In this document: positions 14,426-20,584 of the stretch, in pieces
Layout of the letters: each line of letters starts with the position of its first letter
Position numbering within the stretch: the first letter of the stretch is position 1
NCBI RefSeq assembly: GCF_000026545.1
Contig: NC_011601.1
DNA: 64,000 nt
DNA from: Escherichia coli O127:H6 str. E2348/69
Lineage (GTDB): Bacteria > Pseudomonadota > Gammaproteobacteria > Enterobacterales > Enterobacteriaceae
Reading direction: 5' to 3' (one strand)
The notes under the pieces: generated by a model
Database searches by the model: none
Seen by the model: only the letters and a program-made list of their open reading frames with translations
What the model was told of the DNA's origin: nothing
Translations under genes and position numbers: made by a program

Positions 14426-15979
14426 ATGAGTCATCGTGCACGACACCAATTACTGGCGTTTCCGGGCATTATCTTTTTAGTTCTCTTTCCCATCATTCTG
14501 TCGCTATGGATTGCCTTCTTTTGGGCAAAATCAGAAGTGAATAATCAGCTCCGAATCTTTGCTCAGCTGGCGTTGGATAAATCTGAGCTGGTCATTCGTC
14601 AGGCAGATTTAGTGAGCGATGCAGCTGAACGCTATCAGGGGCAAGTTTGCACTCCAGCCCATCAAAAGCGAATGTTGAATATTATTCGTGGCTATCTTTA
14701 TATTAATGAATTGATTTATGCTCGTGATAACCATTTTTTATGCTCATCGCTGATAGCGTCTGTAAATGGCTATACGATTGCACCGGCCGATTATAAGCGC
14801 GAACCTAACGTTTCTATCTATTATTACCGTGATACGCCTTTTTTCTCTGGCTATAAAATGACCTACATGCAGCGGGGAAATTATGTGGCGGTTATCAACC
14901 CTCTCTTCTGGAGTGAAGTGATGTCTGATGATCCGACATTGCAATGGGGTGTGTATGATACGGTGACGAAAACCTTTTTCTCGTTAAGCAACGAGGCCTC
15001 GGCAGCAACGTTTTCTCCGCTGATTCATTTGAATGATTTAACCGTACAACGAAATGGCTATTTATATGCGACAGTTTATTCGACAAAACGCCCAATTGCA
15101 GCCATTGTTGCGACTTCATATCAACGTCTTATAACTCATTTTTATAATCATCTTATTTTTGCGTTGCCCGCCGGTATTTTGGGGAGTCTTGTTCTGCTAT
15201 TACTCTGGCTACGTATTCGACAAAACTATTTGTCTCCCAAACGCAAATTGCAACGCGCCCTCGAAAAACATCAACTTTGCCTTTATTACCAGCCAATAAT
15301 CGATATCAAAACAGAAAAATGTATCGGCGCTGAAGCGTTGTTACGTTGGCCTGGTGAGCAGGGGCAAGTAATGAATCCGGCAGAGTTTATTCCGCTGGCA
15401 GAAAAGGAGGGGATGATCGAACAGGTAACTGATTATGTTATTGATAATGTCTTCCGTGATTTGGGCGCGTATCTGGCAACACATACCGATCGCTATGTTT
15501 CTATTAACCTGTCAGCCTCCGATTTTCATACCTCACGGTTGATAGCGCGAACCAATCAGAAAACAGAGCAACATGCGGTGCGCCCGCAGCAAATTAAATT
15601 TGAAGTGACTGAACATGCATTTCTTGATGTCGACAAAATGACGCCGATTATTCTGGCTTTCCGCAAGGCCGGTTACGAAGTGGCAATTGATGATTTTGGT
15701 ATTGGCTACTCTAACTTGCATAACCTTAAATCATTGAATGTCGATATTTTGAAAATCGATAAATCGTTTGTTGAGACGCTGACCACCCACAAAACCAGTC
15801 ATTTGATTGCGGAACACATCATCGAGCTGGCGCACAGCCTGGGATTAAAAACGATCGCTGAAGGTGTCGAAACTGAGGCGCAGGTTAACTGGCTGCGCAA
15901 ACACGGCGTGCGCTATTGCCAGGGATGGTTTTTTGCGAAGGCGATGCCGCCGCAGGTGTTTATGCAATGGATGGGGTAA
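14426..15979 (+). CDS. pdeC: Cyclic-di-GMP phosphodiesterase PdeC (CSS sensory domain + EAL)
   Basis: About 517 aa from ATG 14426 (track start 14417 is a TTG); N-terminal TM, periplasmic CSS region, second TM, C-terminal EAL domain; exact C-terminus not verified against K-12. Confidence 0.85.
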
Positions 15980-15981
15980 TT

Positions 15982-16005
15982 ACCCGCGCGGGAGTTAACG
16001 CGCGG
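15982..16005. terminator. Bidirectional terminator hairpin between convergent pdeC and soxS
   Basis: Hairpin CCCGCGCG-GGAGTTAA-CGCGCGGG. Confidence 0.55.
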
Positions 16006-16014
16006 GCAATAAAA

Positions 16015-16338
16015 CTACAGGCGGTGGCGATAATCGCTGGGAGTGCGATCAAACTGCCGACGGAAAACGCGGGAGAAGGTCTGCTGAGAGACATAACCCA
16101 GGTCCATTGCGATATCAAAAATCGGACGCTCGGTGGTGCGCAACTCAACGGCGGCCAGTAACAGACGGCGCTGGCGAATGTAATCGCCAAGCGTCTGATG
16201 CGTCACCGTGCGGAACATCCGTTGCAAGTACCACTTTGAATAGCCAGATTTTTTTGCGACGACATCAATGTTAAGCGGCTGGTCAATATGCTCGTCAATC
16301 CATGCGATAAGATCCTGAATAATTTTCTGATGGGACAT
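16015..16338 (-). CDS. soxS: Superoxide-response transcriptional activator SoxS (AraC family)
   Basis: 107 aa; MSHQKIIQDLIAWIDEHIDQPLNIDVVAKKSGYSKWYLQRMF... Confidence 0.97.
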   Translation of the reverse strand: MSHQKIIQDLIAWIDEHIDQPLNIDVVAKKSGYSKWYLQRMFRTVTHQTLGDYIRQRRLLLAAVELRTTERPIFDIAMDLGYVSQQTFSRVFRRQFDRTPSDYRHRL

Positions 16339-16394
16339 AAATCTGCCTCTTTTCAGTGTTCAGTTCGTTAATTCATCTGTTGGGGAGTATAATT

Positions 16395-16412
16395 CCTCAA
16401 GTTAACTTGAGG
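16395..16412. promoter_or_regulatory. SoxR operator in the soxS promoter spacer
   Basis: Perfect 18-bp palindrome CCTCAAGTTAACTTGAGG in the soxS-soxR divergent intergenic region. Confidence 0.85.
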
Positions 16413-16423
16413 TAAAGCGATTT

Positions 16424-16888
16424 ATGGAAAAGAAATTACCCCGCATTAAAGCGCTGCTAACCCCCGGCGAAGTGGCGAAACGCAGCGGTGTGGCGGTATC
16501 GGCGCTGCATTTCTATGAAAGCAAAGGGTTGATTACCAGTATCCGTAATAGCGGCAATCAGCGGCGATATAAACGTGATGTGTTGCGATATGTCGCAATT
16601 ATCAAAATTGCTCAGCGTATTGGCATTCCGCTCGCAACCATTCGTGAAGCGTTTGGCGTGTTGCCAGAAGGGCATACGTTAAGTGCGAAAGAGTGGAAAC
16701 AGCTTTCGTCCCAATGGCGAGAAGAGTTGGATCGGCGCATTCATACCTTAGTGGCGCTGCGTGACGAACTGGATGGATGTATTGGTTGTGGCTGCCTTTC
16801 GCGCAGTGATTGCCCGTTGCGTAACCCGGGCGACCGATTAGGAGAAGAAGGTACCGGCGCACGCTTACTGGAAGATGAACAAAACTAA
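16424..16888 (+). CDS. soxR: Redox-sensing [2Fe-2S] MerR-family regulator SoxR
   Basis: 154 aa; MerR HTH N-terminus and C-terminal [12 protein letters not shown] cluster-binding motif. Confidence 0.97.
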
Positions 16889-17021
16889 AGCGCCACAAGG
16901 GCGCTTTAGTTTGTTTTCCGGTCTTTGTCTTTCTCTCTATCCCGCTGGTACACAGGAGGGTTTCCCCCGACGTCAACACACCTCATTCGAGCACGTGGTG
17001 GAGGTTCCGGTTGGTGTTGAT
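16882..17021 (-). ncRNA. ryjA: Candidate small RNA RyjA/SraL, antisense to and overlapping the soxR 3' end
   Basis: K-12 has an sRNA of about 140 nt here from memory; a TACAAT -10-like hexamer on the minus strand at 17033-17028; hairpin + T-run at 16887-16917 serves as a shared terminator; boundaries approximate. Confidence 0.4.
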
Positions 17022-17161
17022 GCTTTAATTGTATGTTACCGGCGTTTCTTCGCCAGTGTAAAAGTACACTTTTTAGCCGCAATATTTTTGTCATCTCAGA
17101 CGATTTTTTATCGCAATCCTGAACGGTATACGGCTCGATAACGCTGCAATCTTGCGCATCG

Positions 17162-17177
17162 ACGATAACGTTTGCGC
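17162..17177. promoter_or_regulatory. PurR-box-like palindrome upstream of ghxP
   Basis: ACGATAACGTTTGCGC matches ACGCAAACGTTTGCGT at 13 of 16 positions; weaker copies near 17304-17319 and 17264-17279. Confidence 0.35.
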
Positions 17178-17434
17178 ATCAATTGCCTGGTTTTTCATCG
17201 TCAAGACAATAAAAGAGAAAAAAGCAGCAAACTTCGGTTGAAAAAGCCGCTATGATCGCCGGATAATCGTTTGCTTTTTTTACCACCCGTTTTGTATGCG
17301 CGGAGCTAAACGTTTGCTTTTTTTGCGACGCAGCAAATTGTCGCAAACCTGGAGCAGGAAGATAACGTTTCGCTGGCAGGGGATTGTCCGCCACGCATCT
17401 TGACGAAAATTAAACTCTCAGGGGATGTTTTCTT

Positions 17435-18784
17435 ATGTCTACGCCATCAGCGCGTACCGGCGGTTCACTCGACGCCTGGTTTAAAATTTCACAACGTGGA
17501 AGCACTGTCCGTCAGGAAGTGGTTGCCGGGTTAACAACGTTTCTGGCGATGGTCTACTCGGTTATCGTCGTTCCAGGCATGCTGGGTAAAGCGGGCTTCC
17601 CGCCTGCGGCAGTTTTCGTTGCAACCTGTCTGGTTGCCGGACTCGGTTCTATCGTGATGGGTCTGTGGGCTAATCTGCCGTTGGCGATTGGTTGCGCCAT
17701 CTCTCTGACGGCGTTTACCGCATTCAGTCTGGTGCTGGGGCAACATATTAGCGTACCTGTCGCGCTGGGTGCCGTGTTCCTGATGGGTGTGCTGTTTACG
17801 GTAATTTCTGCCACGGGTATCCGTAGCTGGATTTTGCGCAACTTGCCGCACGGTGTGGCGCACGGCACGGGGATTGGTATCGGTCTGTTCCTGCTGCTGA
17901 TTGCTGCTAATGGTGTCGGTCTGGTGATTAAAAACCCACTTGATGGTCTGCCCGTCGCGCTGGGGGATTTCACGACCTTTCCGGTGATGATGTCGTTGGT
18001 GGGGCTGGCAGTGATTATCGGCCTGGAAAAACTGAAAGTCCCTGGTGGCATTCTGCTGACCATTATCGGTATCTCAATTGTCGGTTTGATCTTCGATCCT
18101 AACGTCCATTTCTCCGGCGTTTTTGCCATGCCTTCATTGAGCGATGAAAACGGCAATTCACTGATTGGCAGCCTGGATATTATGGGCGCGCTGAATCCTG
18201 TAGTCCTGCCAAGCGTTCTGGCGCTGGTGATGACGGCAGTATTTGATGCCACCGGCACTATCCGCGCCGTCGCCGGTCAGGCGAACCTGCTGGATAAAGA
18301 CGGGCAGATCATCGACGGCGGGAAAGCACTGACCACTGACTCCATGAGCAGCGTTTTCTCTGGCCTGGTGGGTGCAGCTCCGGCAGCGGTATACATCGAG
18401 TCTGCGGCGGGTACGGCGGCGGGCGGTAAAACCGGGTTGACGGCTATCACCGTTGGCGTGCTGTTCCTGCTGATTCTGTTCCTCTCTCCGCTCTCTTACC
18501 TCGTTCCGGGGTACGCAACGGCTCCGGCGCTGATGTACGTTGGCCTGCTGATGCTGAGCAACGTGGCGAAAATCGACTTTGCTGATTTTGTTGATGCGAT
18601 GGTGGGTCTGGTTACGGCGGTATTCATCGTGCTGACCTGTAACATCGTAACAGGCATCATGATCGGCTTCGCGACTCTGGTGATTGGTCGTCTGGTTTCC
18701 GGCGAATGGCGCAAGTTGAACATCGGTACGGTCGTTATTGCCGTGGCGCTGGTGACCTTCTATGCGGGTGGCTGGGCTATCTAA
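17435..18784 (+). CDS. ghxP: Guanine/hypoxanthine permease GhxP (NCS2/AzgA family)
   Basis: 449 aa; polytopic membrane protein; K-12 yjcD position. Confidence 0.9.
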
Positions 18785-18802
18785 TCTTACATAGGATTCT
18801 GA

Positions 18803-18834
18803 AAACGGGTGGCAATGGCTGCCCGTTTTTATTT
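18803..18834 (+). terminator. Rho-independent terminator after ghxP
   Basis: Hairpin AACGGG...CCCGTT followed by TTTTTATTTT. Confidence 0.55.
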
Positions 18835-18934
18835 TCTCCGCACATTGTGTGAGCTTTTGCGATATTCTGAAAAAATGAGAATTCAGGCATAACGCCTTTC
18901 TCAGATCATAAAAAACATCGCAAACAGGGAACGC

Positions 18935-20584
18935 ATGGAAATCTTCTTCACCATACTGATAATGACCCTCGTGGTCTCGCTGTCCGGGGTGGTCACTCGT
19001 GTCATGCCCTTTCAGATCCCGCTTCCGCTTATGCAAATCGCCATCGGTGCGCTACTGGCGTGGCCGACGTTTGGTTTGCATGTGGAGTTTGATCCTGAAC
19101 TCTTTTTAGTCTTGTTTATCCCGCCGTTGCTGTTCGCTGATGGCTGGAAAACGCCGACCCGTGAATTTCTCGAACATGGGCGAGAGATTTTCGGCCTCGC
19201 GCTGGCGCTGGTGGTGGTCACCGTGGTCGGCATTGGCTTCCTTATTTACTGGGTGGTGCCGGGCATTCCGCTGATCCCCGCCTTTGCGCTGGCTGCGGTG
19301 CTTTCTCCGACCGATGCTGTAGCGCTCTCCGGGATTGTTGGCGAGGGGCGCATCCCGAAAAAAATCATGGGCATTTTGCAGGGCGAAGCGTTGATGAATG
19401 ACGCCTCCGGCCTGGTGTCGTTGAAGTTTGCCGTGGCAGTGGCGATGGGGACAATGATCTTCACCGTCGGCGGTGCGACGGTCGAATTTATGAAAGTGGC
19501 AATAGGCGGTATTCTCGCCGGTTTTGTGGTGAGCTGGCTGTATGGTCGCTCGCTGCGATTCCTCAGCCGCTGGGGCGGTGATGAACCCGCGACGCAGATC
19601 GTTCTGCTGTTCTTGCTGCCATTCGCTTCTTATCTGATTGCGGAACATATTGGCGTTTCCGGCATCCTCGCTGCGGTTGCCGCCGGGATGACCATCACCC
19701 GCTCCGGTGTGATGCGCCGTGCGCCGCTGGCAATGCGCCTGCGCGCAAACAGCACCTGGGCGATGCTGGAATTTGTCTTTAACGGCATGGTGTTCCTGCT
19801 GTTAGGTCTGCAGTTGCCGGGGATTCTGGAGACGTCGCTGATGGCGGCAGAAATCGACCCTAACGTCGAAATCTGGATGCTGTTTACCGATATTATTCTG
19901 ATATATGCGGCGCTGATGCTGGTCCGTTTCGGCTGGCTGTGGACGATGAAAAAGTTCAGCAACCGCTTCCTGAAGAAGAAGCCGATGGAGTTTGGTTCGT
20001 GGACTACACGAGAAATCCTGATCGCGTCTTTCGCCGGGGTGCGTGGGGCGATCACTCTGGCCGGTGTGCTCTCTATCCCGCTTCTCTTGCCGGATGGTAA
20101 CGTCTTCCCTGCGCGCTATGAGTTGGTGTTCCTGGCGGCTGGCGTCATTCTCTTCTCGTTGTTTGTCGGCGTGGTGATGTTGCCTATTCTGCTACAACAC
20201 ATAGAAGTCGCGGACCATTCGCAACAATTGAAAGAGGAACGTATTGCACGAGCGGCAACGGCAGAAGTGGCAATTGTGGCGATCCAGAAAATGGAGGAGC
20301 GTTTGGCGGCGGATACCGAAGAGAATATCGATAACCAGCTGCTCACAGAGGTTAGTTCTCGCGTCATTGGTAACCTGCGTCGTCGCGCCGATGGACGTAA
20401 TGATGTAGAAAGTTCAATCCTGGAAGAGAACCTGGAGCGTCGCTTCCGTCTGGCGGCATTGCGTTCTGAACGTGCTGAACTGTACCATCTGCGCGCCACG
20501 CGGGAGATCAGTAACGAAACGCTGCAAAAATTACTGCACGATCTCGATTTGCTTGAAGCGTTGCTGATTGAAGAGAACCAATAA
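18935..20584 (+). CDS. yjcE: Na+/H+ exchanger family protein YjcE (CPA1)
   Basis: 549 aa; polytopic membrane N-terminal domain and soluble C-terminal domain; K-12 position. Confidence 0.9.
   Translation: MEIFFTILIMTLVVSLSGVVTRVMPFQIPLPLMQIAIGALLAWPTFGLHVEFDPELFLVLFIPPLLFADGWKTPTREFLEHGREIFGLALALVVVTVVGIGFLIYWVVPGIPLIPAFALAAVLSPTDAVALSGIVGEGRIPKKIMGILQGEALMNDASGLVSLKFAVAVAMGTMIFTVGGATVEFMKVAIGGILAGFVVSWLYGRSLRFLSRWGGDEPATQIVLLFLLPFASYLIAEHIGVSGILAAVAAGMTITRSGVMRRAPLAMRLRANSTWAMLEFVFNGMVFLLLGLQLPGILETSLMAAEIDPNVEIWMLFTDIILIYAALMLVRFGWLWTMKKFSNRFLKKKPMEFGSWTTREILIASFAGVRGAITLAGVLSIPLLLPDGNVFPARYELVFLAAGVILFSLFVGVVMLPILLQHIEVADHSQQLKEERIARAATAEVAIVAIQKMEERLAADTEENIDNQLLTEVSSRVIGNLRRRADGRNDVESSILEENLERRFRLAALRSERAELYHLRATREISNETLQKLLHDLDLLEALLIEENQ

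Follow-up and report, generated by a model that had tools for sequence, protein, structure and literature searches.

Which signals set the expression of ghxP (also called yjcD), a gene for a guanine/hypoxanthine transporter, is the question raised by the 413-bp gap between this gene and sraL in Escherichia coli O127:H6 str. E2348/69. The gap was analysed within a stretch of 64,000 nucleotides of contig NC_011601.1 (assembly GCF_000026545.1). This whole stretch is called the window, and all positions refer to it. A preliminary description of the window had noticed palindromes resembling PurR boxes and short direct repeats upstream of ghxP. The analysis indicates, with a probability of roughly 85%, that the gap is a control region under PurR in which three boxes and a predicted promoter provide negative feedback on purine import.

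ghxP is a PurR target that is already known, and box 1, the most upstream of the three boxes, is its published in vivo PurR site. In the chromatin immunoprecipitation study on microarrays (ChIP-chip) of Cho et al. (2011; PMC3159470, Table 1), PurR binds a region labeled 'ryjA/yjcD' with the motif ACGATAACGTTTGCGC at 4,276,230-4,276,245, which maps exactly onto positions 17162-17177. The enrichment of this region is log2 2.08 in the presence of adenine, while no peak is listed without adenine (PMC3159470). Secondly, ghxP belongs to the PurR-1 iModulon with the same motif at 4278206 (Sastry et al., 2019; PMC6892915), a position that corresponds to box 1, and both the iModulon and the motif result are repeated by Rodionova et al. 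(2021). Thirdly, a PurR-dependent repression of yjcD in response to adenine is cited by Kozmin et al. (2013; PMC3809563), who themselves report that 6-N-hydroxylaminopurine (HAP) leads to a 4-fold drop. Lastly, yjcD was already in the RegPrecise PurR regulon when a further predicted site, AAGATAACGTTTCGCT at -76, was added to it (PMC4576408). PurR control of this transporter, which the preliminary description had thought sensible without being able to confirm it, is thus documented by ChIP-chip, iModulon, adenine/HAP repression and RegPrecise. The ChIP data that it had suggested consulting contain a motif that equals box 1 letter for letter.

To score the boxes, a position weight matrix (PWM) was trained on the 27 other ChIP-chip motifs of Table 1 in Cho et al. 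(2011), with the ghxP site excluded. These training sites score between 12.2 and 24.9 bits, with a median of 20.3. When both strands of the window are scanned with this matrix, ranks 1 and 2 are taken by box 3 and box 1, so that the two top matches of the whole 64 kb both lie upstream of ghxP; the next match elsewhere has 13.1 bits. According to the exact score distribution, 0.0003 matches of at least 18.3 bits are expected in the 413-bp intergenic region, where two are observed. For a match of 18.9 bits the expectation is 0.0002. Boxes 1 and 3 are 16-bp palindromes with a central CG and a score like that of validated sites; box 2 falls below the training range in this strain, with higher scores elsewhere (14.1 bits in 24 species and 13.4 bits in L085, a relative with a reduced genome). 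The palindrome that the preliminary description had seen at 17162-17177 is present and agrees with the consensus ACGCAAACGTTTGCGT at 13 of 16 positions, as had been claimed, the mismatches being at positions 4, 5, and 16. It had also listed weaker copies at 17264-17279 and 17304-17319. Both boxes exist, but the first is best placed at 17261-17276, and the second is not weaker than box 1 (18.9 vs. 18.4 bits).

The conservation of the boxes was determined in 81 upstream regions from about 25 genera, including 80 fetched loci of GhxP orthologs, one per species. Among the genera covered are Escherichia, Salmonella, Citrobacter, Enterobacter, Klebsiella, Raoultella, Kosakonia, Buttiauxella, Cedecea, and Atlantibacter. 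Boxes 1, 2, and 3 are kept in all 81 species, box 2 as rGATAATCGTTTGCyT and box 3 as AGyTAAACGTTTGCTT, which bears out the conservation across Enterobacteriaceae on which the earlier proposal depended. Substitutions are confined to positions that also vary among known PurR sites (1, 3-5, 7, 10, and 15-16), while the CG core and the GC flanks are untouched; in box 1, solely positions tolerated by PurR are substituted in the 81 species. The distance between boxes 1 and 2 is exactly 99 bp in 80 of the 81 species, in spite of the poor conservation of the 60 bp that separate box 1 from the -35 hexamer. Other distances vary, from 42 to 156 bp between boxes 2 and 3 and from 113 to 190 bp between box 3 and the ATG. 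The fixed 99 bp may point to some distance-dependent cooperation of PurR at box 1 with the weak box 2. In Mangrovibacter, the lone exception, the distance is 100 bp and the right half of box 2 is missing as well. L085 has boxes 1 and 2 at 99 bp and lacks sraL, box 3, and the leader structure described below. Erwinia keeps boxes 2 and 3 and has no box 1. As these exceptions illustrate, the modules of the control region are separable.

Two further observations concern the sequence between the conserved modules. Insertions of 45-113 bp occur in the leader right after box 2, past the equivalent of position 17281, in Klebsiella, Raoultella, Kluyvera, Pseudocitrobacter, and others (loci L029, L035, L041, L042, L047, L049, L052, L056, L058-L060, L067, L075, and L078), while the insertions of Buttiauxella fall within the structured region. 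Between box 1 and the -35 hexamer (about 17186-17203), many loci outside Escherichia (e.g., L014, L037, L048, L057) carry an inverted repeat GGyGA-N7-8-TCrCC, in which GGTGA/TCACC changes to GGCGA/TCGCC. The repeat is limited to some genera, with E. coli showing a degenerate form. Either a binding site for a protein or a hairpin is conceivable, although the evidence is too weak to call.

The arrangement of the boxes becomes meaningful in relation to the promoter. TTGAAA and GATAAT, separated by 18 bp, form the single sigma-70-like site on the + strand, and this same site is also the single one in Salmonella and Klebsiella. Both hexamers and the length of the spacer are kept in 81 of 81 species, while the spacer sequence drifts. 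From this prediction, transcription would start near 17273-17275, with about 160 nt of leader ahead of the start codon. Box 1 would then be centered at about -104, box 2 would lie on the -10 and +1, and box 3 would extend from about +31 to +47. A promoter further upstream, overlapping box 1, is not supported, as there is no acceptable -10 hexamer and a TTGCCA-type -35 is found only outside Escherichia. The distance of about 270 bp between box 1 and the start codon had been regarded as a difficulty for PurR control. It is accounted for by the predicted promoter, since a long leader and an upstream auxiliary site place box 1 far from the start codon.

In the proposed mechanism, PurR with its corepressor, hypoxanthine or guanine, would bind the region and shut ghxP off. 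The import of the molecules that activate the repressor would thereby stop, which would amount to direct negative feedback. PurR at box 2 would block binding of RNA polymerase, while PurR at box 3 would block early elongation in the manner of a roadblock, as at the purR and purB operators. Box 1 may serve as an auxiliary high-affinity site which, at its fixed distance, probably raises the occupancy of the weak box 2 through distance-dependent cooperation. The folded leader suggests a second, post-transcriptional layer of control.

Several points weigh against this three-box reading. Every position relative to +1 rests on a promoter that is predicted. The ChIP-chip peak spans positions 16787-17417, approximately 630 bp, and cannot separate which boxes are occupied, and the genes that Cho et al. 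(2011; PMC3159470) name as newly found, bound and differentially expressed do not include yjcD. With 11.1 bits, box 2 stays below the weakest training site (12.2 bits), and its conservation could partly be owed to the -10 and the start region. Similarly, box 3 lies in a conserved RNA helix, so its conservation could partly arise at the RNA level. PurR is not known to form tetramers or loops, and there is no established mechanism for action from -104 or for a 99-bp rule.

One alternative is that box 1 is the sole PurR operator, with box 2 being kept as the -10 and start region, box 3 as a strand of the leader RNA, and the likeness of both to PurR sites being incidental. The published motif lists indeed give box 1 only, the score of box 2 is low, and both the minimum-free-energy fold and the covariation model have 17365-17373 as the pairing partner of box 3. 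This explanation is nevertheless unlikely, as a match as good as box 3 is so rarely expected by chance and as the variation of box 3 tracks what PurR tolerates. An A7>T variant in seven species is tolerated by PurR and breaks an RNA pair without compensation, the unpaired TTTGC of the box is invariant, and Erwinia retains the box (17-19.6 bits) even though its leader has diverged (17-20 bits to the RNA model). These observations speak for PurR binding as a real constraint on box 3. For box 2, CGTTTGC is retained downstream of the -10 in 80 of 81 species, which goes beyond the needs of a promoter.

Box 1 could also serve a gene other than ghxP, namely the divergent sraL, or could block read-through from the co-oriented upstream gene for a protein resembling glutathione S-transferase (GST) that is present in most genera. 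The label 'ryjA/yjcD' of the ChIP-chip peak (Cho et al., 2011) would allow the former, and the latter would fit the ending of the GST-like gene about 75 bp before box 1 in Salmonella and Klebsiella, with no terminator-like site detected in between. Such a role is improbable. Box 1 sits 141-156 bp upstream of the sraL start, and other genera have sraL more than 1 kb away, with box 1 still at 99 bp from box 2. E. coli and L085 have no GST-like gene, and L085 has no sraL either, but the 99-bp position of box 1 is retained in both, whereas Erwinia has the GST-like gene and no box 1. It is highly improbable that another repressor of the LacI/GalR family, e.g., RbsR or GalR, uses the boxes instead of or besides PurR. 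Members of this family do share AACGTTT cores, and GalR binds sites that overlap the PurR operators at purR. However, the ChIP-chip enrichment of PurR depends on adenine, ghxP co-varies with pur genes in the PurR-1 iModulon, and flanks of the GCAAACGTTTGC type agree with the PurR matrix. In E. coli, box 4 (described below) may resemble an rbs operator half-site in its right half, but it is not rbs-like outside Escherichia. Finally, the palindromes and repeats might be chance products of an AT-rich intergenic region, given that the window shows no enrichment of AACGTTT by itself (17 copies vs. 10.5 expected, with 9 of 100 shuffles reaching 17). This is refuted by the full 16-mers, which are far beyond chance, conserved in 81 species and bound in vivo, and its probability is negligible.

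Besides being the top-scoring PurR box, box 3 contributes its 5′ part as one strand of an RNA helix, P2, in a structured leader (Table 1). Its partner coincides with the additional site published at -76 (PMC4576408), here called box 4, which forms the inverted repeat I1 with box 3 and covaries with it at one pair, 32:107 (UA 31, CG 25, UG 12). As a PurR site, box 4 was rejected, as its score is low and it is not conserved as such. The better reading is that of an RNA element, the 3′ strand of P2, which has box 3 as its partner.

The region between box 3 and the start codon is unusually conserved, and an alignment of 73 distinct leaders, in which the segment UCUCAGGGGAUGUUUUCU is nearly invariant, supports a common fold. 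Helix P1 occurs, e.g., as GUAUGCG/CGCAUAC, GUAAGCG/CGCUUAC, UUACACG/GUGUAA, and GUCUGCG/CGCAGAC. In the proposed structure, 92.8% of the cells are paired and 15 pairs show double changes, compared to 29-50% and 6-9 with slid partners, and none of 500 shuffles reaches the observed values. An unbiased scan of 18,721 column pairs, using a G-test with average product correction (APC), ranks proposed pairs at 1, 3, 10, 17, and 24. G-U combinations outnumber A-C combinations (126 vs. 25), which identifies the + strand as the one that folds. A covariance model of the leader has one match in the window (17290-17405, 103.8 bits). It recognizes held-out species with 48-121 bits and Erwinia weakly, with 17-20 bits, and finds no match in L085, a Serratia paralog locus and two divergent species. 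P2 and P2a also appear when the E. coli leader is folded by minimum free energy. However, the folding energy of the single sequence is no better than that of shuffles (z = 0.04), so the case for a structure rests on covariation.

This fold, a conserved covarying structure in a 5′ leader as is generic for riboswitches, appears to be undescribed. In Rfam 15, sraL is the sole match in 15500-19500 at E<=1, and no family, the purine riboswitch included, matches the leader; at gathering score, the related loci yield sraL and one tRNA only. No literature was found on a leader structure, a riboswitch or a CsrA link of ghxP/yjcD. As for the mode of action, no terminator-like site is present on the + strand between 16850 and 17500, and the conserved U-run at 17318-17324 precedes P2a rather than following it, which argues that the leader is not a terminator. 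A leader peptide was rejected as well. An open reading frame of 35 codons, MRGAKRLLFLRRSKLSQTWSRKITFRWQGIVRHAS (17296-17403, +), spans exactly the P1 domain but is not conserved, as Enterobacter and others (GTAAGCG, GTCTGCG) are without its ATG and as one T fewer in the T-run of K-12 shifts the frame. Neither helix P3 nor a pairing of a CCCC loop with the Shine–Dalgarno region shows convincing covariation; E. albertii and most genera have CCCC in the P2a loop, which reads GCAGCAAAT in E. coli and lacks CCCC there.

Three conserved GGA motifs resemble CsrA sites (ACArGGAuGU). One lies at the Shine–Dalgarno region (17419-17426), one at 17377-17384, and one near 17352-17363. The second is an exact copy of CAGGGGAT, located 42 nt upstream of the Shine–Dalgarno region and inside P3. 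This duplication may represent a decoy or anti-Shine–Dalgarno arrangement. A UCCGCC/UCCACC strand could pair with either copy. The leader might act as a translational switch, as a target of CsrA control or as a metabolite sensor. Tentatively, the 115-nt leader may be an undescribed cis-regulatory RNA of the Enterobacteriaceae that senses a metabolite or a protein, with CsrA as a candidate, and sets translation of the importer; it would be layered on a three-operator PurR complex with an obligatory 99 bp between boxes 1 and 2, one of its helices being made from operator sequence. We consider this full proposal possible, but doubtful.

Table 1. Features in and around the ghxP control region, with positions in the window and the evidence for each.
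Feature	Position	Strand	Evidence and remarks
Box 1 (O1), ACGATAACGTTTGCGC	17162-17177		PWM 18.4 bits; identical to ChIP-chip motif of Cho et al. (2011)
Box 2 (O2), weak PurR-like, GGATAATCGTTTGCTT	17261-17276		PWM 11.1 bits, rank 9; overlaps predicted -10 and +1
Box 3 (O3), strong PurR box, AGCTAAACGTTTGCTT	17304-17319		PWM 18.9 bits, best match of the window
Box 4, AAGATAACGTTTCGCT	17359-17374	+	PWM 8.2 bits, rank 18; below 8 bits in most species
TTGCGCAT, resembles right half of PurR box	17152-17159	+	Direct repeat D4; kept in all genera, with at least 97.5% of the 81 species having it
-35 hexamer TTGAAA (predicted)	17238-17243	+	Sole promoter-like + strand site, 10/12 match; 81/81 species
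-10 hexamer GATAAT (predicted)	17262-17267	+	Predicted start about 17273-17275
Conserved structured leader RNA	17290-17405	+	Covariation (RNAalifold, pair counts); covariance model 103.8 bits
P1	17294-17300 / 17394-17400	+	Compensatory changes in 6/7 pairs
P2	17305-17313 / 17365-17373	+	One covarying pair, remainder invariant
P2a hairpin	17322-17329 / 17340-17347	+	Compensatory changes in 6/6 pairs
P3	17379-17383 / 17387-17391	+	Weakly supported
Shine–Dalgarno region, CAGGGGAT	17419-17426	+	Direct repeat D6; exact copy at 17377-17384 within P3
ghxP (yjcD), guanine/hypoxanthine transporter gene, 449 aa	17435-18784	+	Open reading frame list; 99% identical to annotated GhxP
sraL (ryjA), small RNA gene	16881-17021	-	Rfam RF01408, 153 bits; annotated as ryjA in MG1655
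soxR	16424-16888	+	
soxS	16015-16338	-	

The short direct repeats of the region are mostly by-products of the boxes. CGTTTGCTTTTTTT occurs twice exactly (17268-17281 and 17311-17324), as part of a 23-nt direct repeat (17264 and 17307) with 87% identity and a distance of 43 bp, which arises because boxes 2 and 3 both contain TAAnCGTTTGC followed by a T-run. TTGCGCATC is found at 17152 and 17172, and CGATAACG at 17136 and 17163. These repeats result from the CGTTTGC half-site that the boxes share and from the extra, half-site-like TTGCGCAT. The latter resembles an orphaned right half of a PurR site and precedes the identical letters of box 1 by 20 bp, or two helical turns. Salmonella has an extra ATTGCGCA copy further upstream, and the upstream copy of CGATAACG is specific to E. 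coli. The tandem CGATAACG...TGCGCATC repeat that the preliminary description had reported is present, although it begins at 17136 and not at 17148. Likewise, the T-runs that it had seen after both copies exist, but neither they nor the repeats are separate regulatory repeats. Outside Escherichia, Salmonella, and Citrobacter, there is no conservation of the T-run that follows box 2, and the T-run that follows box 3 comes before the hairpin, for which reasons both an attenuator or terminator reading of the T-runs and UTP-sensitive reiterative transcription at GCTTTTTTT as a general mechanism were rejected. Strains of E. coli differ in the region of the direct repeats: in K-12 (MG1655, L086), the first copy is TTGCGCACC, and the run after box 3 (17318-17324) is T6, not T7. 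Near box 1 (17159), it has TTGCGCAC where this strain has TTGCGCAT.

Several known systems resemble the ghxP control region in part. With the operators of the pur regulon (purF, purMN, purHD, purC, and others), it shares the imperfect 16-bp palindrome with central CG, corepressor-dependent binding and a target in purine supply. A single base distinguishes box 1 from ACGAAAACGTTTGCGC at purHD. As a rule, PurR sites are located between -35 and -10 (14 of 32 regions; Cho et al., 2011; PMC3159470). In contrast, ghxP would have box 1, its strongest published box, about 104 bp ahead of the predicted start, and there are three boxes over approximately 160 bp. A second example is the autoregulation of purR, which reportedly involves two operators downstream of the promoter (Rolfes and Zalkin, 1990), together with purB, whose operator is inside the coding region (Cho et al., 2011; PMC3159470). 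Here, elongation can be blocked by a PurR site that lies downstream of the start, as is proposed for box 3, and a gene can have more than one operator. Unlike these genes, ghxP combines downstream, promoter-overlapping and far-upstream sites, and its box 3 would be much closer to +1.

The auxiliary operators of lac and gal also have a strong site about 100 bp from a promoter site and are bound by members of the same protein family; at ghxP, the distance is conserved, while the sequence in between is not. O1 and O3 of lac are about 92 bp apart, and OE and OI of gal about 113 bp. Looping depends on the tetramer in the case of LacI and on HU in the case of GalR, whereas PurR is a dimer that is not known to loop DNA. 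Looping by PurR at ghxP, to which this analogy leads, is speculation. One cited study reports no effect of PurR on chromosome structure.

For the leader, a close parallel is the guanine riboswitch of Bacillus (Rfam RF00167), which controls the hypoxanthine/guanine transporter genes pbuG and pbuX. It is likewise a structured 5′ leader before a hypoxanthine/guanine importer, with a multi-helix junction and conserved joining regions. However, the ghxP leader has no Rfam match, differs in size and helices, and is confined to Enterobacteriaceae apart from a weakly matching leader in Erwinia. CsrA binds the leaders of glgC, pgaA, and cstA. The ghxP leader shares with these several conserved GGA motifs, one of which overlaps the Shine–Dalgarno region, the CsrA sites being predicted in this case.

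The 581 bases around the control region are matched between soxR and ghxP in 5,420 of 5,426 complete E. coli genomes, and the open reading frame list, Rfam and the MG1655 annotation give the gene order soxS-soxR-sraL-ghxP. The opposite-strand neighbor sraL is outside the ghxP control region. It overlaps the 3′ end of soxR and, including its promoter-like site, extends over 16881-17062 (-); its terminator hairpin (16912-16882) and this promoter-like site (17062-17033) were both found by simple scans. In Salmonella, Klebsiella, and Erwinia, the GST-like gene lies on the ghxP strand between sraL/soxR and ghxP (L005 487-1155, L049 420-1112, L083 268-930, and L084 142-804), whereas E. coli is without it and it is absent at 17022-17150. 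Two groups of loci deserve separate mention. L001 is on a contig labeled as a metagenome-assembled genome of Bacillota, while its locus is 99% identical to E. coli ghxP and has all three boxes; the label is probably due to contamination or mis-binning. In L081 and L082, a Serratia fonticola protein with 86% identity to GhxP is encoded downstream of an amidohydrolase gene. L081, the only Serratia locus scanned, has no PurR box of at least 8 bits within 500 bp, and the leader RNA model matches neither of the two loci, which probably represent the context of a GhxQ-type paralog.

Altogether, the PurR part of this control region is ordinary and known, and the leader RNA is a modest new lead. What is added is the three-box layout with its frozen 99 bp, the reassignment of box 4 and an apparently undescribed leader with covariation support. 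With 99 bp frozen across about 25 genera, the layout offers a clean natural test of cooperation over approximately 100 bp by a dimeric repressor of the LacI family. If the reading of the leader is correct, one published PurR site would be corrected, and a single stretch would serve at two levels, with PurR recognizing it as DNA and the leader fold using it as RNA. Should the leader indeed sense a ligand or a protein, a post-transcriptional layer would be added to the control of purine salvage in enteric bacteria.

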